DNA from: Candidatus Falkowbacteria bacterium
GTDB lineage: Bacteria > Patescibacteriota > Patescibacteriia > CAIXNZ01
Direction: 5' to 3'
Length of the DNA stretch: 64,000 nt
Assembly: GCA_963774955.1 (NCBI GenBank)
Contig: CAVZGV010000004.1
Coordinates: 383,779 to 447,778 of the forward strand
Position 1 is the stretch's first letter. The number at the start of each line of letters is the position of its first letter. Made by a program: the position numbers and the translations under genes. This document shows positions 4,101-35,522 of the stretch, one piece after another. The notes beneath the pieces are model-generated. The model saw only the letters and a program-made list of their open reading frames with translations. It made no database searches and was not told the origin of the DNA.

Positions 4101-7100
4101 GGAGCTGGTACATATTTGAAATCAGATGGTGCTGGCGGCTTAACTTGGGCTACTCCGGCTGGTAGCGGTACTATTACTGCTGTTGGTGATATAACCACAG
4201 GAGCCGCGTTTACACCTACAGCAGGCGCAGATGGCAATAATTTGTATTTTGAAGGCACAACCGGAAACGGTTTTGAAGTTAATCTGACAGCAGCAGATCC
4301 GGGATCAGATGTGATAGTGACAATCCCTGCAACAACCGGCACATTATTATTGAATACAAATAATTTATCTGACGTATCAAATACAGGAACAGCCAGGACA
4401 AATTTAGGTTTAGGCACGGGAGACAGCCCGCAATTTACAGGATTAACACTGACAAGCGATGAAACATTAAATGCACAGTCAGATTTACGGTTGGCAGATG
4501 CTGATTCATCAAATTGGGCGGCATTCCAGGCGCCAACGACAATTTCTACAAATTATACCTTGACTTTGCCGGCAGATGACGGGACAGCAGGACAATGTTT
4601 GACAACAAGCGACGGCACAGGGACATTAGCCTGGGCAGCTTGCGGAGCTGGAAGTGGAGCAGATACAGCATTATCAAATCTGGCATCAGTAGCCATTAAT
4701 ACATCATTATTACCGGGTACAACAGAATCAATAGCTTTAGGATCAGATTCATTTAACTGGTTGAATTTATACTTAGGGAATGGCGGAGTAGTTTTTGAAG
4801 GCGCAACAGGGGGAGTGGATACAAATGAGACTACCTTGGTAGTGACAGACCCGACAGCAGACCGGACAATAACCTTACCTAATGCAACAGGCACAGTATT
4901 ATTAAATACAAATAATTTATCGGATGTATCAAATACAGGAACGGCGAGAACAAGTTTAGGGTTGGGCACGGGAGATAGCCCGCAATTTACCGGATTAACA
5001 TTAACAAGCGATGAGACATTAAATGCACAGTCAGATTTACGGTTTGCAGATGCTGATTCATCAAATTGGGCAGCTTTCCAGGCGCCAACGACAATTGCAT
5101 CAAATTATACCTTGACCATGCCGGCAGATGACGGCACAGCGCTCCAGTTTTTACAGACTGACGGAAGCGGCGTTTTATCCTGGGCAACCCCAACAGTTAC
5201 ATCTGTAGCCTTTAGTGGCATAACTAATGGCATAAATACAACAGCCACTATGACGGTCGGAAGCGGAGCAACTTTAGCACCGTCAGGAACTGGTATAATA
5301 ACTGCTACCAGATATACAGGGTCAGGTTCTTCAACTAATGAAGTTGACTTAGGAACAGCAGAGGTAGCCGGTACTTTAACCGTAGTTAAGGGCGGTACGG
5401 GAATAACTGATTTTACTGGGGCGACTGGTAGTTTACCTTATTTTAATTCTGAAACTACTATGGATTTTACAAACGCCGGTACTAATAATAAATTCCTTAA
5501 AGGCGTCACAGGAGGAGCTCCAGCTTTTGCTTCAGTCGATTTGAGCAGTCCGGATGTGACAAGCACTTTGCCTATTGTTAGAGGTGGTACTGCTGCTACT
5601 ACGATAGGATCTGCTGGCAGAGTTGTATATAGTACAGGTACGGCTTATGGCACTTCCAGTGCCACAACCGAATTGGGACATATACTTATTTCAGGTACAA
5701 GTGGCACTGGTGCTCCGTCCTGGTTGGCTCAGGGTGCATCGGGGCAATTACTAGTATCAGGTGGGACAAATGTAGCACCGACTTGGACTTCCTTAGGTAG
5801 TGTACCAACTACGTCAAATAATGATGCTACTTTGCGTTCCAATGGTTCAGCTTGGGTTGAAAATACCTCCGTATTGATAAGTTCAACTGGAGGGATATCA
5901 TCCGCGAACGGTTCAGCCCTAACCATAAATTCTGGAACTACGGGTGATTTGGGGATTGGAACGGATGCAAGTATTGAAAATATAAATATAGGTACTGGTG
6001 GTGCCACTAAAACTATTATTTTTGGCAACAGTACTGGAGCAACCTCAGTTGCTATAAATACTGGTACCGGAGCATTAAATCTGGGAACGAATGCAATCGC
6101 TCATATCACAACATTGGGTTCTATAACAGGTGCCGCTTCAACCATAGTTCAATCAGGAACCGGTGACCTTAAAATTGAGACCCAGGGTACTGGCGGTTTA
6201 AAAATTGGTACTAATGCAGTAGCACAGAATATTACAATCGGCAACGGAACCGGAGCAACATCGCTTGTCTTAGAGGCTGGTACAGGCAATATCGATATTG
6301 GTAGCAATGATATTGCCAGGAGTATAAATATAGGTCAAACCTCTACAGCAGCTCAGGCTATTACCATAGGTAATGGTAATACAGGCACAGCAGTGGATAT
6401 AAAAGTCGGTACAGGAGCCTTAAATTTAGGGTCAAATGCTACAGTTCATACTACCACTTTAGGTTCAAATACTAGCACCTCAACCACTACAGTTCAATCA
6501 GGAACCGGCGGACTTAATTTAACTTCTGCAAGTACAGGTATAATAACCCTAGATTCGGGAACCACTGGTAGGATTGATATAGGAACTAATACTGGTGGCA
6601 AGACTATTAATATCGGGACAGGAGCAGCAGCTAATACCCTTAATATTGGTAATAATACTAGCGGCACAGGTACGTATATCAAAGCTGGAAACACCGGCAT
6701 TAATATATCAACTGGCGGGGCAGGGAATATAGACATATTGACTGACTCAACTGGTACTATGCACATTGATACAGGTACATCAGGTACGATAAATTTTGGA
6801 ACTGGCGATAGCGGAAAAACTATTAATATTGGTACCGGTAATGTCGCCAATACAATTAATATTGGTAATTCATCCTATGCTACTGCAATTCAGTTATATG
6901 GTACTGGCGGTGTAAAAATCGGCTCATCGAGTAGCACTGCGATTTTAAATCATTATTCTGGTACAGCTTCTCTGGATTTTGGCGCCACTGCTGCTAATAC
7001 CTGTGATGCCGCCACCATAACAGTGACTGGCGCTGCTGACGGAGATACTGTTACTCTTGGTGTACCTGCTGCTTTAGCCGGAAGCGATGCTAGTCAGAAT

Positions 7101-20170: not shown

Positions 20171-20212
20171 TTTAAAAAAAACCTCGGGAAAGTTCCCGAG
20201 GTTTTGTTTTTA
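20171..20212. terminator. Bidirectional rho-independent terminator between the pilin gene (+) and the L,D-transpeptidase gene (-)
   Basis: aaaaaaaacctcggg-aaagtt-cccgaggttttgttttt. Confidence 0.6.
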
Positions 20213-21088
20213 GGGATAGGGTTTGATTGTGACCCTAGTCCTGACTTGAATGAAGTTTTTGCTCAGCCATTCGGCATCCGAGTAGAATAAGCGGACACAG
20301 CCATGGCTGGCATTGGCTCCTGGCAAATTGCCTGCATGAAAGGCATAATTTTCCTGAAAGAACATGGCATACGGCATACTGGCGCAGTTTGAGCCAGTGC
20401 AGCCTTTGGGGTAACGACTAGATCTATACTTCGGACCTTCTTTGCGAATGATCCGAAATTCTCCCACCCTGGTTCGGCAGGAACGACCGACATCAGCGCA
20501 ATAATCTTTACCGCCCACACCAGGCCCCCAGCGTACAAGCTTTCCGGCTTCGTTATAGGCGGCATAGGCAAGCAGGTTTGGATCCCAGATGATTAATTTT
20601 TCACCCAGCGTGTCCGTGAAGTAGGGAAAGGGTGAATAATCCATGAAGGTTTTGTCCTTCATCTTCCTGGGAACTGCCAGTTCATCGCCTTTTTTCAGCT
20701 TGATGTTTCGACGGTTAATTTTCATGACAATTTCGCGTTCAAGGGTATTGCCCCAGAGAATTTCCCATGATTCCAGGACTTCTTTGTCTTGAAGTTTAAC
20801 GCCTACTTCTGTTTCCACCTGGTCGGTGATTACGGTTATGACGACAGTATGACAGAAAAAGTTGACCGTATCCCCGCAAAGTTCAGTCCCATATTTTTTT
20901 GTGAGAATTTCAGGTTTGATCGGGGCGATGCTTTGCATTGTGTTGCCGTCTTGTATTTCATCTGTGGCTGGGGGTAGCGGCAGGGAAGAGCATTGATTCG
21001 CTTCTTCCTCTTCCAGTTGAGCGTAAATAAATAAAGGAACAATCAGGAGCGCGCACATAAAGAGCATTACCAGCCAGACTTTTTTCAT
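20210..21088 (-). CDS. L,D-transpeptidase (YkuD domain), secreted
   Basis: Signal peptide and catalytic motif HAGNLPGANASHGCVRL. Confidence 0.8.
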   Translation of the reverse strand: MKKVWLVMLFMCALLIVPLFIYAQLEEEEANQCSSLPLPPATDEIQDGNTMQSIAPIKPEILTKKYGTELCGDTVNFFCHTVVITVITDQVETEVGVKLQDKEVLESWEILWGNTLEREIVMKINRRNIKLKKGDELAVPRKMKDKTFMDYSPFPYFTDTLGEKLIIWDPNLLAYAAYNEAGKLVRWGPGVGGKDYCADVGRSCRTRVGEFRIIRKEGPKYRSSRYPKGCTGSNCASMPYAMFFQENYAFHAGNLPGANASHGCVRLFYSDAEWLSKNFIQVRTRVTIKPYP

Positions 21089-29098: not shown

Positions 29099-29524
29099 AT
29101 GCCAACCATTAATCAATTAGTCAGAAAAAACAGGAAAGTAACCAAAAAGAAAACCAAAACTCCGGCTTTGGAAAGTGTTTATAATACTATTAGAAGGAAA
29201 AGCAAGTCTTTGTCTGGAGGTAACCCATTCAAGCGCGGTGTTTGCCTTAAAGTAACGACTATTACACCTAAAAAGCCGAACTCAGCCTTACGTAAAATCG
29301 CCAGGGTCAGATTATCTAACGGTATGGAAGTTACCGCGTATATTCCAGGCGAAGGTCATAATCTGCAGGAACACTCTATAGTCATGCTTCGGGGTGGTAG
29401 AGTCAAAGATTTGCCAGGTGTCCGCTATCACATTGTTCGCGGCCGTTATGACACCCAAGGTGTGGAAAATCGACGCAAAAGCCGTTCACTTTACGGTCAA
29501 AAACGACCTAAAGATAAAAAATAG
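29099..29524 (+). CDS. rpsL: 30S ribosomal protein S12
   Basis: [25 protein letters not shown]. Confidence 0.9.
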
Positions 29525-30183: not shown

Positions 30184-32269
30184 ATGCCCCGTGAGTATAC
30201 ACTAGAAAAAACAAGAAATATCGGCATTATGGCCCATATTGACGCTGGTAAAACAACGGTTACCGAGCGTGTTTTATTTTATACCGGTAAAAAACATAAA
30301 ATTGGTGAAGTTCATGAAGGGGCTGCTGAAATGGATTGGATGGAACAGGAAAAAGAAAGAGGCATTACCATTACTGCCGCTGCTACTACTTGTTTTTGGA
30401 AAGATCACCGTATTAATATCATTGATACTCCCGGTCACGTTGATTTTACGGTAGAAGTCGAAAGGTCATTGCGCGTTTTAGACGGTGCAGTGGCGGTTTT
30501 TGACGGTTCTCAGGGTGTAGAACCTCAATCAGAAACAGTTTGGCATCAGGCAGCCAAATATGATGTTCCCAGGATTGCTTTTGTAAATAAAATGGATAAA
30601 ATGGGAGCAGATTTTTATATGACGTTTGGATTCAATTGCTGAACGTTTGTCAACTCATGCTGCGGCAGTGCAATTGCCTATCGGTGCTGAAGAAACTTTC
30701 TGTGGTCTGGTTGATTTATTAGATCGTCAAGGCTTATAAATTTGAAGGTGAATATGGCCAAAATGTTATAGAAATATCAATCCCGGAAGATATGAAAGAT
30801 AAGGTAGAAAAATACCGCAAAATTTTACTGGAAAAAGTTGCGGAAAATGATGAGGATATGATGAATAAATATTTAGCCGGACGAAGAATTGGATATTGAT
30901 CAGATTACGTCAGGTAATGCGTAAAGCTACAATATCTAATGATTTTCATCCGGTTTTGTGCGGTTCAGCTTTGAAAAATATCGGTGTACAACGAATGCTT
31001 GATGCGGTGGTATGCTTATTTACCATCACCGCTTGATGTACCTCCGATTATAGGTAAAAATCCTGATACAGGCAATGAGGAAAAAAGAGAAAGCTACTGA
31101 TGAAGCGCCTTTTGCCGCACTTGCCTTTAAATTAGCCACTGATCCTTTTGTCGGTAAATTAGTCTTTTTTCGTGTTTATTCGGGCAGTCTAAAAGCAGGT
31201 TCTTATGTTTTAAATACCAAGACAGGAAATAAAGAAAGAATTGGTCGTATTGTACGCTTGCATGCTAATTCCCGAGAAGATGTTGATGAGGTTTTTTCCG
31301 GAGAAATTGCAGCAGCTATTGGTTTGAAAAATACTGTAACGGGCAATACTTTGTGCGATGAAAAATACCCTGATAATTTTGGAAGAAATTATTTTTCCGG
31401 AACCGGTTATTTCCGTGGCGATTGAACCAAAAACCAAGGCTGACCAGGAAAAAATGGGCATGGCTATGCAGAAATTGGCCGAAGAAGATCCGACTTTTAA
31501 GATTCACACTGATGAGGAAACCTTACAGACTATTATTTCCGGTATGGGCGAATTACATTTGGATATTATTGTTGACCGTATGAAAAGAGAATTTAAAGTT
31601 GAAGCCAATGTCGGTGCGCCTCAGGTTGCTTATAAAGAAACCATCAAAGGTGGCGGCTGAAGGCGAAGGTAAATATATCAAACAGTCAGGTGGTCGTGGT
31701 CAATATGGTCATTGTTGGTTAAAAGTTGAACCGCGTGATCGAGGTGAAGGCTTTGAATTTGTTGATGAAATTAAAGGCGGCGTTATTCCCCGGGAATTTA
31801 TTCCTGCCGATTGAAAAAGGTGTTAAAGAATCTTTAACTAAAGGTATTTTGGCCGGTTATCCGGTTGTTGATATTAAAGGCTACTGTATATGACGGTTCT
31901 TATCATGACGTTGATTCTTCTGAAGTAGCTTTTAAAATTGCCGGTTCTATGGCTTTTTTTGAAGCCGCCAGAAAGGCTAAGCCAATTATCTTGGAACCGA
32001 TTATGAAGATTGAAGTAACTACCCCGGAGCAATTTATGGGTGATGTTATTGGTGATTTGAATTCCAAACGCGCTCAGATTTCTCAAATGACCGAGAAAGT
32101 TAAATTAAAGGTAATTGACGGTTTAGTTCCTCTTTCAGAAATGTTTGGTTATGCCACCTCTTTAAGGTCTTTGACTCAGGGACGTGCAAATTATGCCATG
32201 GAATTTGATCATTATCAGGAAGTTCCATCTAATGTTGCGCAAAAGATTATTGAAGGAAAAAAGAAATAA
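30184..32269 (+). pseudogene. fusA: Elongation factor G with at least 8 frameshifts between ~30620 and ~31870 (N-terminal G domain and C-terminal domains intact)
   Basis: ORF-track pieces 30184-30642, 31075-31425, 31358-31660, 31599-31814 and 31865-32269 are all EF-G in different frames. Manual translation of 30640-31075 gives further EF-G segments ([120 protein letters not shown]), each in a shifted frame. Confidence 0.85.
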
Positions 32270-32293
32270 TATATAATTATCATTTTATAAACA

Positions 32294-32325
32294 AAAACAC
32301 CCCGTATAAGGGGTGTTTTTGTTTA
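32294..32325 (+). terminator. Rho-independent terminator after fusA
   Basis: aaaaacacccc-gtataa-ggggtgtttttgttt. Confidence 0.6.
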
Positions 32326-32477
32326 TTGCCTTGGTTATTCCTAGGTCATAATTTTTGCAAGCGGGTATCAGAGGTGTTTAGTCAATATAATTGTGGTTTA
32401 ACATTCTCTTCTTTAATATTTTAACTAAAGTAATTATATTTGATTGTTAATAATAAGTGTATAACTCTGGGGACTAG

Positions 32478-32536
32478 TATGTAGATAACCATGTGTAAAA
32501 CTATGTGGGTAAATATGTGCAAAATTTGTCTATAAT
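32478..32536 (+). promoter_or_regulatory. Four phased 12-nt direct repeats (ATGTrnnTAAAy; weak DnaA-box-like TGTGGGTAA) abutting a TATAAT -10 element
   Basis: atgtagataacc / atgtgtaaaact / atgtgggtaaat / atgtgcaaaatt, then tgtctataat. Confidence 0.35.
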
Positions 32537-32844
32537 TAGCTAAAAATGGACTTGACGCTATTTGGGGTATAAGTTATTATAAGCATACGAACCCTACTTG
32601 ATTACGAGTTAAGTATCATTTTCTCAAATTTTTTGAGATGGGTACTTAGTTCAGTGTCTAAAGCGGGGTTTTTTTGTTGTCATAAAAAAATTGCAAGATA
32701 TATGGGATTTGAAAAGGAAACGCTACACTGTTTCCTTTTTATGTTGTCACCCGGGCTTAAAGGGAGGTAACTAAAGATGGTTAAAGGTTTTAAAGGATAT
32801 TGGAAGATCAAAGAAGCAACATTTAAAAAAGGAGGTGTTCTAAA

Positions 32845-33723
32845 ATGGAAGCGAAAAAGCTGGTGATGAATAATCAGATTCCTCGAGATTTTGATCTCTT
32901 GGATCCGGAAACTCGGCAACTGGCTTTAGCGATCGGCGGGCGCAAAGTTAATGGCACCAATTTTCATTTGGGTCATTTGGCCAAGAACTTAAAACGTTCT
33001 GAAGTCGCAGTCTGGGCAGCCAGACGAGTGATCCGTAGCGAGGCCATCGGTATCAACTGGGAACATCTTCTTGATGATATCGTTGAAACTTGTCTCAAGG
33101 AGTTCCACTATGAAACCTATCGTCATTTAAAGCGCATGCACGGGATTATGGCAGAAGAATTGAAGTACTTGCAACATCATCAGCCGGCGCAGATGGATGA
33201 TCGCGGCATCAAAGAGTTCCGAGAGATGGAGCATTTTCCTCTGGGTGAGGAAGAACAAGCTCAGATGAAATGGGCTTCTTCATTCCACGATATCTGTCGC
33301 ATGAGTTACAAGGTTTCTTACTGGAAGAAGAAAGGGAAATTTACTCCCTTGCAAAGAAAACAACTTGATTTTCATGCTCGGAACTTCTTTTTCCTGGGAC
33401 AATTGTTTAATGTTTACCAGGAAGTCATTGCCTTGTCAGTCTTGCATCACTATCCCAATAAAGGCTATCCTGACAACGGAATTATCGCTAAGTTAACGCC
33501 TTTTTTGGCGCAGCCTAAATTCCAGTACATGTTGAATTGGCTGGTTACCAACGACGTTTATACTGGTGCAACCGATGATCGAGGCTACCGAGATCAGCCA
33601 TACACCCATGAGCAGGCAATTGGCCAAACAATGCCTACTGAATTGGGTCCTGTTGGCATGGCTTGGGTACCGTTTATCGAAGCGATAAAACAACCAGGTG
33701 ACAAGGTGGTTTGCCCCGCTTAA
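32845..33723 (+). CDS. Hypothetical protein (292 aa), GC-richer, possible HD-type metal-dependent phosphohydrolase
   Basis: Consensus SD (aaaaaggaggtgttctaaaATG). H..H / HD / HH / D residues spaced as in HD-domain proteins (FHLGH, FHDICR, VLHHY, ATDD). GC about 47%. Inserted between fusA and tuf. Confidence 0.5.
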   Translation: MEAKKLVMNNQIPRDFDLLDPETRQLALAIGGRKVNGTNFHLGHLAKNLKRSEVAVWAARRVIRSEAIGINWEHLLDDIVETCLKEFHYETYRHLKRMHGIMAEELKYLQHHQPAQMDDRGIKEFREMEHFPLGEEEQAQMKWASSFHDICRMSYKVSYWKKKGKFTPLQRKQLDFHARNFFFLGQLFNVYQEVIALSVLHHYPNKGYPDNGIIAKLTPFLAQPKFQYMLNWLVTNDVYTGATDDRGYRDQPYTHEQAIGQTMPTELGPVGMAWVPFIEAIKQPGDKVVCPA

Positions 33724-33727
33724 CCAG

Positions 33728-33782
33728 TCAAGGGCCTCTCTTACTCGGACTTTAAGTCTGAGAGGAGAGGGCCCTTGACTTT
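33728..33782. terminator. Long perfect inverted repeat (bidirectional terminator-like)
   Basis: gtcaagggcctctc..ttactcggactttaagtctgagag..gagagggcccttgac. Confidence 0.5.
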
Positions 33783-33825
33783 CTTTTTAATTTAAGGTAA
33801 GTTATATATAGTTTTTTAAAAGATT

Positions 33826-33866
33826 TGCCCCGCAAAGTGGGGTCAGCCTTCGGCGGAAAACTTTTT
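33826..33866 (-). repeat. Third, more degenerate copy of the twin-hairpin element (no adjacent tRNA)
   Basis: Minus strand reads GTTTTCCGCCGAAGGCTGACCCCACTTTGCGGGGCAAATCT, the same architecture as the elements 3' of both tRNA-Pro genes. Confidence 0.4.
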
Positions 33867-33872
33867 TATTTT

Positions 33873-34196
33873 ATGAAGAATTTAAAAAGAATATTGGATC
33901 TGATTCGTAAAACAGGCGATAAATATATCTTCGAAGATGATAATGAGGGTATTTTTGTGGTCTTAGCTTTAGATGACTATGAAAATTATATTTTTAAGAA
34001 TAATCAGCTAAAGAATTTGTCTGAAGAGGAACTTTTAAATAAAATTAATAAGGATATCGCTATCTGGAAATCATCTCAAGAAGATAAAATTGTTGATCAG
34101 TCGTGGCAAGATTTGCCTGTTGAGGAAAATGAAAAAAAGCACTCGGTTGAAGATGAAGATCGTTATTATTTTGAGCCGGAAGAAGATGAAGATTAA
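33873..34196 (+). CDS. Hypothetical acidic protein (107 aa; MKNLKRILDL...EPEEDED)
   Basis: Start placed at the internal Met because the longer ORF from 33825 runs through the repeat element. Highly acidic C-terminus. Confidence 0.45.
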   Translation: MKNLKRILDLIRKTGDKYIFEDDNEGIFVVLALDDYENYIFKNNQLKNLSEEELLNKINKDIAIWKSSQEDKIVDQSWQDLPVEENEKKHSVEDEDRYYFEPEEDED

Positions 34197-34331
34197 AAAG
34201 ACTTGCCAAATGTTTAAATAGTGCTATAATTAGATATACATTTAAATAAATAAATAATTTTAATTAGGGAAGCGGCTGGATAAAACTCTGCCTCAATAAT
34301 GGTTAGAGGCCGACTCCAAGGAACTAAAAAA

Positions 34332-35522
34332 ATGGCAGCAGAAAAATTCGATCGATCAAAGCCCCATGTTAATGTTGGTACAATCGGCCATGTTGATCAT
34401 GGTAAAACCACTTTAACGGCGGCTATTTTAAATTATATCGGCGCTAAAGGCGGTAAAGCCCAGCAAAAAAGCGTTGATCAAATCGATGCAGCTCCTGAAG
34501 AAAAGGAACGCGGTATTACTATTGCTACTGCTCACGTGGAATATGAAACAGAAAAAAGACATTATGCTCACGTTGATTGCCCTGGTCATGCTGATTACAT
34601 CAAAAACATGATTACTGGCGCAGCTCAAATGGATGGCGCAATTTTGGTCGTGGCTGCAACTGACGGCCCTATGCCTCAGACTCGCGAACATATTTTATTA
34701 GCTTATCAGGTTGGCGTGCCTTCAATTGTTGTTTTCTTAAATAAATGTGATCAGGTTTCTGATCCAGAATTAATTAATTTGGTTGAGGAAGAAGTTAGAG
34801 ACCTTTTAAAGAAATATAAATATCCTGGAGACGAAATTCCGATTATCCGCGGTTCAGCCTTAAAGGCCTTGGAAGATCCTAAAGGTGAATCCGGCCAATG
34901 CATTCAACAACTTTTAGATGCCTTAGATAGTTATATTCCTGAACCAGTTAGACAAATTGATAAACCCTTCTTAATGCCAATAGAAGACGTGTTTTCAATT
35001 GAAGGTCGCGGCACAGTTGTGACCGGTAGAATTGAAAGAGGTATAATTAAAGTAACTGATGAAGTTGAAATAGTCGGCATTACGGCTACTCAAAAAACAG
35101 TAGTTACAGGGATTGAAATGTTTAATAAATCGTTAGACGAAGGTCGTGCTGGAGATAATGCCGGTATTTTATTGCGCGGTACTAAAAAAGAAGACGTGGA
35201 AAGAGGTCAGGTTATCGCTAAGCCAGGCTCTATTACTCCTCATACTGAATTTGAAGGTGAAACATATATTTTAACCAAAGAAGAAGGCGGTCGTCACAAA
35301 CCTTTTTTTAAAGGCTATAAACCCCAGTTTTATATTCGTACTACTGATGTAACTGGTGAAGTTGAAATTTTGGGCGGCGCAGAAATGGTTATGCCAGGCG
35401 ATACCATTCAATTAAAAGTTAAATTGATTGCTCCTGTTGCTTTGGAGGAAAAAATGAAATTTGCTATTAGAGAAGGCGGCAAAACCGTTGGTGCTGGCGT
35501 GATTACTAAGATTATTGCGTAA
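34332..35522 (+). CDS. tuf: Elongation factor Tu
   Basis: [44 protein letters not shown]. Confidence 0.95.

Follow-up and report, generated by a model that had tools for sequence, protein, structure and literature searches.

Does the DNA that separates the elongation factor genes fusA (EF-G) and tuf (EF-Tu) in a Parcubacteria genome represent a foreign island, or is it an old possession of the lineage? We addressed this question in a 64-kb stretch of a metagenome-assembled Parcubacteria contig (CAVZGV010000004.1; GC 39%; the whole stretch is called the window hereafter), where the last base of fusA is 32269 and the first base of tuf is 34332. The resulting spacing of about 2.06 kb agrees with a preliminary description of this DNA, which had reported some 2 kb and had read them as a recent foreign acquisition between two genes that are normally adjacent. 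Sequence comparison of loci indicates that the gap is made of three predicted transcription units, each with its own conserved promoter: X (a 292-aa open reading frame, ORF, behind a 575-bp non-coding leader), Y (a 107-aa ORF) and tuf itself. With more confidence than doubt, we favor a reading in which this gap has been inherited vertically in a Buchananbacteria-like clade and X is a phosphodiesterase gated at several layers.

The order fusA, leader, X (∼292 aa), Y (∼105 aa) and tuf was found in at least 11 distinct Parcubacteria/Buchananbacteria loci, across which the identity of X to the window protein ranges from 67% down to 25% and that of tuf is at least 85%. The complete arrangement is present in L001, L003, L009, L012 and L013 (Candidatus Buchananbacteria RBG_13_39_9), the segment X-Y-tuf on the shorter contigs L004, L005, L006, L016, L019, L022 and the P0002 contig, and fusA lies upstream of X wherever a contig extends far enough. 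Homologues of X are rare, with 11 clusters among 5.8 billion proteins and 14 family representatives in an exhaustive profile search (50%-identity clusters, E ≤ 1e-10). Every homologue with a readable context occupies the same site, and the family was found only at this locus. X thus stands between fusA and tuf across the lineage, which contradicts its description as a recent arrival, and in this lineage, contrary to what had been stated, fusA and tuf are not adjacent as a rule.

Loci without X indicate what the arrangement was before. All five loci of distant Y homologues (37–46% identity) lack X, and the X-less loci show fusA-Y-tuf (L015, L026, and L028/L029), Y-tuf (L027) or Y-orf138-tuf (L014). 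Because Y adjoins tuf upstream even in genomes without X, we take the older order to be rpsL-rpsG-fusA-Y-tuf. The same observation argues that X and its leader are an old insertion between fusA and Y, made in the ancestor of one subclade and inherited since. The earlier view of an insertion is therefore retained for X and its leader relative to the older order, and only its recent date is given up. Y, which had been counted as a small acidic gene within the foreign insert, is not part of the insertion; it is an older and far more widespread partner of tuf. No integrase, att-like repeats, direct-repeat borders or tRNA were found in the flanking region.

The genes concerned and the first element of the gap are as follows.

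30184..32269, plus strand: fusA (EF-G), split over about ten frame segments by ten single-base insertions
32287..32326, plus strand: intrinsic terminator hairpin of fusA, 17 bp, then a T-run (−25.9 kcal/mol, z −6.7)
32845..33723, plus strand: X, 292-aa ORF, with an N-terminal helical region (residues ∼1–80) and a predicted divergent HD-GYP domain (∼80–270)
33873..34196, plus strand: Y, 107-aa ORF starting at a conserved ATG (33873); Phd/YefM-type domain at the N-terminus, no Shine-Dalgarno (SD) sequence
34332..35522, plus strand: tuf (EF-Tu, 396 aa), true start MAAEKF

In the window, the surrounding order is L28 (minus strand), M50 peptidase, rpsL, rpsG, fusA, the leader, X, Y, tuf, rpsJ, and rplC. 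Nearly all the elements that the preliminary description had listed in the gap proved real and correctly placed, including the strong terminator after fusA, four phased 12-nt repeats, two promoter-like elements, a 29-codon upstream ORF (uORF) with a consensus SD that overlaps the next start, the 292-aa ORF with its consensus SD, and the small acidic protein gene, Y. The exceptions are a GC value, a perfect inverted repeat and the copy of a twin-hairpin element, each of which is taken up below. Two loci carry additional ORFs in the spacer between fusA and the leader: a 1007-aa ORF on the minus strand of L001 (2537–5560), and a 98-aa Cys-rich ORF in L012 (3498–3794) with two CxxC...CxxC motifs that resembles a ClpX zinc finger. 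This site appears to tolerate insertions.

Composition and ribosome-binding sites speak for a recent horizontal acquisition, in which a foreign 2-kb island would have entered the str operon of this genome. The reported contrast with the neighbors is genuine. Among 62 window ORFs, X ranks sixth in GC (z 1.55) and fourth in GC at third codon positions (GC3; z 1.97), and its 9-nt SD, AAGGAGGTG, is the strongest of the 62 genes examined, 48 of which have an SD-like match of at most 3 nt and eight a match of at least 6 nt. The GC of X is 45.5% and not the ∼47% first given; it is high, yet similar to that of other enzyme genes in the window. In addition, the synonymous sites of X are saturated in comparison with L001 (6001–6879), the proportion of synonymous differences (pS) being 0.75, against 0.43–0.51 for fusA, Y and tuf. 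The corresponding nonsynonymous distances (dN) are 0.235 for X, 0.014 for tuf, and 0.035 for both Y and fusA. The saturation may reflect weaker codon bias, an elevated mutation rate or exchange of alleles between members of the clade.

These traits are nevertheless shared by the orthologues. The GC3 of X is 0.47–0.56 versus 0.25–0.44 for its neighbors in all six loci measured, its GC is raised in the same six, and a strong SD recurs for the X orthologues in the loci inspected; because of this recurrence, high GC3 and a strong SD are best regarded as maintained traits of X rather than marks of recent transfer. Window ORFs that exceed X in GC or GC3 are ordinary enzymes, namely pyrD, pyrF, pyr-cluster neighbors and a YkuD transpeptidase. 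SDs of 6–9 nt belong to GC-richer enzyme genes, that is, the pyr cluster at 50.8–56 kb, the YkuD gene at 20210–21088, and X (SD-led genes start, for example, at 32845, 53594, 54387, and 57123), and the SD-poor genes include the ribosomal and translation genes examined (e.g., those at 29099, 29650, 30184, 35613, and 36267). Since the other SD-led genes are these same GC-richer enzymes, the SD contrast is not a sign of recent arrival; it separates core translation genes, which are AT-rich and have no SD, from accessory genes in this genome. With the same architecture in at least 11 related loci at X identities down to 25%, a family found only here, no mobility genes, att repeats or adjacent tRNA, and a GC within the range of the window enzymes, recent acquisition seems to us hardly credible. 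The other GC-rich 292-aa ORF of the window (20210–21088, minus strand) was considered as a paralogue of X and rejected; it encodes the YkuD L,D-transpeptidase and has no similarity to X.

What, then, does this old insertion encode? Single-sequence searches of Pfam, NCBIfam and PDB sequences with X returned no match, and a PDB profile search gave one sub-threshold match, V-cGAP3 (E 0.42). When the family profile was compared with 1.84 billion representatives, a tail of about 70 weak matches was obtained (E 1e-7 to 1e-3), which align to X residues ∼129–262, and all ten that were tested are Pfam HD_5/HD proteins. Alignment of the X family with the HD-GYP profile by hhalign gave a probability of 99.6% (E 9.8e-24, 150 columns). 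In this alignment E90/H94, H148-D149, H177, H201-H202 and D237 of X fall on the HD-GYP metal ligands, G207-Y-P209 on the GYP motif, and NDVYtGaTddRgYR (D237, R246/Y248) on the D(V/I)(Y/F)DAL..R.Y(R/K) motif. The profile search, the Pfam assignment of the distant matches and the hhalign result together bear out the earlier suggestion of a possible HD-type hydrolase. H148, D149, H177 and H201 are invariant in the family and H202 nearly so; a single member, P0008, has other residues at both H94 and D237. Relative to the motif definition HHExh(D/N)GxGYP (bioRxiv 10.1101/2021.11.05.467447), the motif region of X, LHHYPNKGYPDNG, keeps HH and GYP, has Tyr, His or Phe for Glu, and differs in the spacing of D/N-G.

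Structure prediction pointed the same way. The AlphaFold2 model of X has a mean predicted local distance difference test score (pLDDT) of 75.8 and a predicted template modeling score (pTM) of 0.75, and the top seven Foldseek matches in PDB are all HD-GYP proteins, including DvhD (9rbz), PA4781 (4r8z) and PmGH (4mcw), with Bd1817 (3tmb) further down the list. The Foldseek probabilities are high, yet the E-values are weak (0.1–0.5) and the template modeling (TM) scores are 0.36–0.40 when normalized to the query and at most ∼0.5 when normalized to the target. This weakness counts against the assignment, as do two further points: Pfam HD/HD_5 does not match the window X even at E ≤ 1 and matches just 2–3 of 11 family members (E 0.003–0.014), and the Glu of HHE and the GK of HDxGK are replaced. 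On balance, X appears to be a very divergent HD-GYP-type metal-dependent phosphodiesterase whose domain lies below Pfam detection. Its activity is likely because the catalytic set is intact, and by analogy with characterized enzymes its substrate would be a cyclic dinucleotide such as cyclic di-GMP (c-di-GMP) or 3′3′-cGAMP. The PADLOC defense models matched neither X nor Y.

The second part of the question concerns the expression of X. The 575-bp leader spacer is far better conserved than the synonymous sites of X, and five elements were recognized in it.

32442..32537, plus strand: phased array of eight 12-nt units, consensus yATGTGnATAAn; phase and unit number kept in 11 related loci
32552..32580, plus strand: X promoter, sigma-70-type TTGACG-17-TATTAT, predicted transcription start at ∼32587–32589
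32587..32676, plus strand: ∼88-nt rod-like hairpin RNA ending in a 7-U run (T1), with covariation, strand-specific
32712..32740, plus strand: T2, second terminator-like hairpin AAAAGGAAAC / GUUUCCUUUU with a U-run (5 U), z −3.8
32777..32866, plus strand: uORF, 29 codons, SD GGGAGGT; covers the SD of X and overlaps X by 22 nt

The four clear repeats at 32478–32525 (Tandem Repeats Finder period 24 × 2, score 59) are the core of the eight-unit array. The unit core, TGTGNATAA, complements the DnaA-box consensus TTATNCACA, and seven sites one mismatch from this core lie within 91 bp, all on the plus strand; the rest of the 64-kb window holds 59 sites of this level, on both strands. Across 11 loci, units 2–7 mostly show 0–1 mismatch, against an average of 5.6 for composition-matched random 9-mers, and the last unit, TTTGTnTAnAATTAG, never varies. 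A stretch of 15 bp separates the array from the X promoter, whose −35, −10 and spacing are kept in all related loci. A second −10-like element, TATAAT, lies at 32531–32536 and is the other promoter-like element that had been described. In L014, which has no X, a perfect DnaA box, TGTGGATAA, stands ∼45–55 bp upstream of the −35 of the Y promoter (4880–4960); it is a single case, with a chance expectation of ∼0.002 in 200 bp.

An array of this kind might serve replication, as an oriC or a datA-like site that titrates DnaA, instead of controlling a promoter. Seven to eight same-strand DnaA-box-like sites beside an AT-rich stretch (32400–32460) would suit such a role, and in Bacillus subtilis DnaA-box clusters outside oriC bind DnaA stably (PMC2533591). 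However, GC skew is positive in every 2-kb bin of the 64-kb window, with no change of sign. The array also stops just 15 bp short of a conserved −35, is invariably accompanied by the promoter, the RNA and X, and is absent where X is absent (L015, and L014 bar its single box). A replication element is consequently improbable in our judgment, and we treat the array as part of the X promoter region.

The X transcript would begin almost directly with the hairpin, which starts at about position +3. No change is seen in its base strands, GAACCCUACUUG and GCGGGGUUUUUU, even where the identity of X is down to 39%; this invariance is independent evidence only for the seven loci found by protein similarity (the window, L001, L003, L004, L005, L006, and L013), six of the 13 hairpin sequences having been fetched by the base-strand pattern. 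In the inner stem, the sequence changes and the pairing is kept. On the 13 distinct sequences, nine of 26 predicted pairs carry compensatory changes, 95.2% of the cells are paired compared with 36–61% when the partner is slid, and none of 500 shuffles reached the observed covariation. A covariance model scored 90 bits on the plus strand versus 18 bits on the minus strand, found a single copy in the window and none in X-less loci, and the RNA always lies in the same orientation 100–190 nt upstream of X. Rfam 15 at gathering score recognized only four tRNAs in the whole window; in a permissive scan (E ≤ 10) of 32270–34340 no match touched the hairpin and none exceeded 27 bits, far below the gathering scores, and neither scan provided a family for the leader of tuf or the 55-nt hairpin downstream of X. 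Because the stem runs straight into seven U, transcription should terminate here. A hairpin like T2 follows in most related loci, not all.

Several matches were set aside. L021 (1–2511) has the promoter and the hairpin RNA, followed by an ORF whose first ∼60 aa resemble X, and lacks the array; the remainder of that ORF and the next gene are archaeal-looking ribosomal proteins, with groES upstream, and this probably chimeric metagenome contig was left out of the conclusions. The pattern-scan matches in L007, L011, L017, L020 and L025 have no array, promoter or X and were treated as due to chance.

The uORF overlaps the start of X by 22 nt in the window, and all six loci inspected have a uORF of 24–34 codons with a strong SD that ends at or over the X start. 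The encoded peptide is poorly conserved and is shared only among the closest relatives (MxxxFKGYWxI).

The ∼88-nt hairpin may also be a stand-alone small RNA, with X a mere neighbor expressed in another way. A conserved promoter of its own precedes it, its 3′ end resembles a terminator, a second terminator comes after it, and since it starts at about +3 there is no upstream sequence whose alternative pairing could regulate it, nor did we find a competing antiterminator fold for the T1/T2 leader. On the other hand, no conserved promoter was seen between T1/T2 and the uORF or X, and the constant orientation and distance from X, together with the restriction to X-bearing loci and the single copy in the window, tie the RNA to the gene. 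We judge an independent small RNA to be unlikely, although it deserves to be kept in view, and retain the hairpin as a leader element of X.

Downstream of X, the other two units are delimited by the following elements.

33726..33780, plus strand: 55-nt hairpin ending the X unit, 25 pairs (−40.5 kcal/mol, z −7.4)
33775..33803, plus strand: Y promoter TTGACT-17-TAAGTT, kept across loci as TTGAC(T/A)-17-TAAG(T/C)T
33827..33854, plus strand: two small GC-rich hairpins in the 5′ untranslated region of Y, a variable insert (z −0.59)
34203..34230, plus strand: tuf promoter TTGCCA-16-TGcTATAAT, with 11 of 12 consensus positions and an extended −10; kept in all X-bearing loci
34268..34317, plus strand: structured tuf 5′ leader AGCGGCUGGAUAAAACUCUGCC ... 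GGUAGAGGCCG, in all X-bearing loci

The 55-nt hairpin had been described as a 55-bp perfect inverted repeat; it contains bulges and G-U pairs and is not palindromic, its stability being −40.5 kcal/mol on the plus strand versus −33.6 on the minus strand. A hairpin of differing sequence stands at the same place in all orthologous loci, and in the window its 3′ arm overlaps the −35 of the Y promoter. The twin hairpin, which had been taken for a copy of a repeated element, has no other copy in the window; it is present in the window, L006 and L003 and absent in L001 and L005. Y has no SD and is preceded by a conserved U-rich leader (33860–33875), AAAACUUUUUU(U)AUUUUAUG, that is almost invariant in the window, L001, L003, L005 and L006.

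The Y protein consists of the Phd/YefM-type domain, a conserved helix, LSEEELLNKINKDIAIW, an acidic linker and a YYFEP-acidic tail, and its conserved blocks are TGDK, DYE, LSEEELLxKINxDIAxW and EDRYYFEP. Pfam PhdYeFM_antitox (PF02604) matches 21 of 30 family members (best E 3.4e-7); the window protein reaches E 2e-4 and 21.4 bits, below the cut-off of 29.8 bits. In the AlphaFold2 model, a helix-strand-strand-helix unit is followed by a long helix and a disordered tail, and the best PDB matches by Foldseek are YefM (6l8e/2a6q) and Phd (3hs2/3k33), with root-mean-square deviations of 1.4–2.0 Å over ∼40 residues. A single-sequence search found 68 clusters of Y homologues and a profile search 1,089 proteins at E ≤ 1e-5, the named sources being Buchananbacteria, Falkowbacteria or ‘Patescibacteria group’.

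A Phd/YefM fold with a disordered acidic tail of the toxin-neutralizing kind, next to a tightly gated and fast-evolving gene, could suggest that X and Y form a toxin-antitoxin pair, with X as a toxic HD hydrolase and Y as its antitoxin. This explanation meets several difficulties. Y stands directly upstream of tuf without X in all five distant loci, and its family of more than 1,000 proteins (E ≤ 1e-5) faces only some 14 X representatives (E ≤ 1e-10). Each of the two genes has a promoter of its own, and a strong hairpin lies between X and Y. Moreover, no Doc, YoeB or other toxin gene lies beside Y in any locus examined, where its neighbors are fusA or X and tuf, and PADLOC recognized neither protein. 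We therefore give a toxin-antitoxin pair little credence. Judging from gene linkage only, Y is more likely a DNA-binding or an EF-Tu/ribosome-associated factor than an antitoxin.

On sequence evidence, tuf has its own promoter. Its structured leader was seen in L001, L003–L006, L009, L012, L013 and L022, and in a similar form in the X-less L014; the outer stem shows apparent compensatory changes, and the leader sits between a strong promoter and a weak SD. An in-frame ATG at 34299, 33 nt upstream of the tuf start, lies inside the leader stem and would give a 407-aa ORF; its use is very unlikely.

Taken together, these elements suggest that the expression of X would be held low and conditional by four layers. 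First, an oligomer of DnaA or of another protein on the phased array would set the activity of the X promoter, DnaA being the best candidate by consensus. Second, most transcripts would stop as a short RNA at T1, which a second terminator usually follows, and production of X would require either read-through or the binding of some factor to the invariant base of the hairpin. Third, because the strongly SD-led uORF covers the ribosome-binding site of X, the translation of X would depend on that of the uORF. Fourth, the strong hairpin after X would insulate Y and tuf. Y would then form the second unit, and tuf, with its own strong promoter and structured leader, the third.

Some observations do not sit easily with this scheme. 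The window array holds no exact match to TGTGNATAA, and its spacing is 12 bp, against 11 bp in the low-affinity DnaA arrays of Escherichia coli; the binder could be a protein other than DnaA. L013 has a uORF of only seven codons and no clear T2, and no structure sequestering the SD of X or of the uORF was found (z −0.59). The scheme is weakest in two places, namely which protein binds the array and whether the hairpin is subject to any regulation. A more far-reaching version, in which the hairpin would be a new ligand- or protein-responsive attenuator, possibly sensing a second messenger, a DnaA-type oligomer would couple HD-GYP expression to the replication or growth state, and Y would be an EF-Tu/ribosome partner with a domesticated antitoxin fold, is doubtful as a whole.

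Apart from the gap, the upstream gene shows an anomaly of its own. fusA carries exactly ten single-base insertions and no deletions, at or near 30624, 30727, 30881, 30907, 31012, 31089, 31371, 31652, 31809 and 31879, and none of them is in a homopolymer. Once the ten bases are taken out, an intact EF-G of 691 aa is obtained, which is 93.8% identical to that of L001 (dN/dS ∼0.04); the other window genes are unaffected. The interruptions differ from ordinary decay, and they may be an assembly or polishing artifact or something unexplained.

CPR (candidate phyla radiation)/Patescibacteria have tiny genomes, in which most lineage-specific genes have no known function. In the literature searched, we found no account of a YefM-like gene next to tuf, of HD-GYP proteins in Parcubacteria or of c-di-GMP signaling in CPR bacteria, and neither the structured RNA nor the HD-GYP subfamily nor the tuf-linked Phd-fold protein seems to have been described there. 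The X unit offers a new RNA motif supported by covariation, a DnaA-box-like array of a rare type, in strict phase and not at an origin, and a subfamily of HD-GYP proteins that has diverged beyond the reach of current domain models; these components bear on whether and how reduced CPR organisms use nucleotide second messengers. If the more far-reaching version is true, the hairpin and the array would couple an HD-GYP phosphodiesterase to the replication or growth state in CPR bacteria. The Y family, with more than 1,000 members and its position between fusA and tuf, is a candidate CPR-specific factor for translation or for the regulation of tuf, and might turn out to be a previously unrecognized, lineage-specific EF-Tu/ribosome partner across Patescibacteria. 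There is also a practical lesson: where core translation genes are AT-rich and SD-less, a GC or SD contrast with ribosomal-gene neighbors is a poor indicator of recent transfer.

How do these elements compare with known systems? The closest known parallel to the array comes from B. subtilis, where DnaA-box clusters outside oriC regulate neighboring genes, e.g., sda, ywlC, and yydA, and local site density and cooperative binding are thought to be important for them (PMC2533591). The window array resembles these clusters in its dense sites at no more than one mismatch from TTATNCACA adjoining a promoter, and differs from them in having eight head-to-tail sites in strict 12-bp phasing, none exact; its binder could instead be Y, the N-terminal region of X or another protein. 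The leader RNA is similar to attenuators and riboswitches as a structured 5′ leader with a GC-rich stem and a U-run upstream of a gene, and in its covariation. It departs from them as a single long rod (26 consensus pairs) from about +3, with base strands invariant over deep divergence, no alternative antiterminator fold found, a tandem second terminator and a uORF following it, and no Rfam match.

X shares with the HD-GYP phosphodiesterases (RpfG, PmGH 4mcw, PA4781 4r8z, V-cGAP3 5z7c, and DvhD 9rbz) the H...HD...H...HH...D set, the GYP motif and the D(V/I)Y..(R).Y(R/K) motif. It also has an ExxxH pair upstream of the ligand set, which we take to be the position of the extra acidic ligand of trinuclear enzymes such as PmGH. 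In contrast to these enzymes, HHE is changed to HH(Y/H/F), and HDxGK to HDxCR in most members, although not in the more distant L012 and P0019, which have HDLGK; X has a 22-aa insert at residues 106–127 and a family-specific helical region of ∼80 aa at the N-terminus instead of REC, GAF or DUF3391, and its family occurs at a single locus of a single CPR subclade. Y, finally, shares with the Phd/YefM type II antitoxins the N-terminal fold followed by a disordered C-terminal part. It differs from them in its conserved central helix and YYFEP-acidic tail, which are not seen in those antitoxins, and in that, without a cognate toxin gene, it is fixed beside tuf in the str operon of many Patescibacteria.

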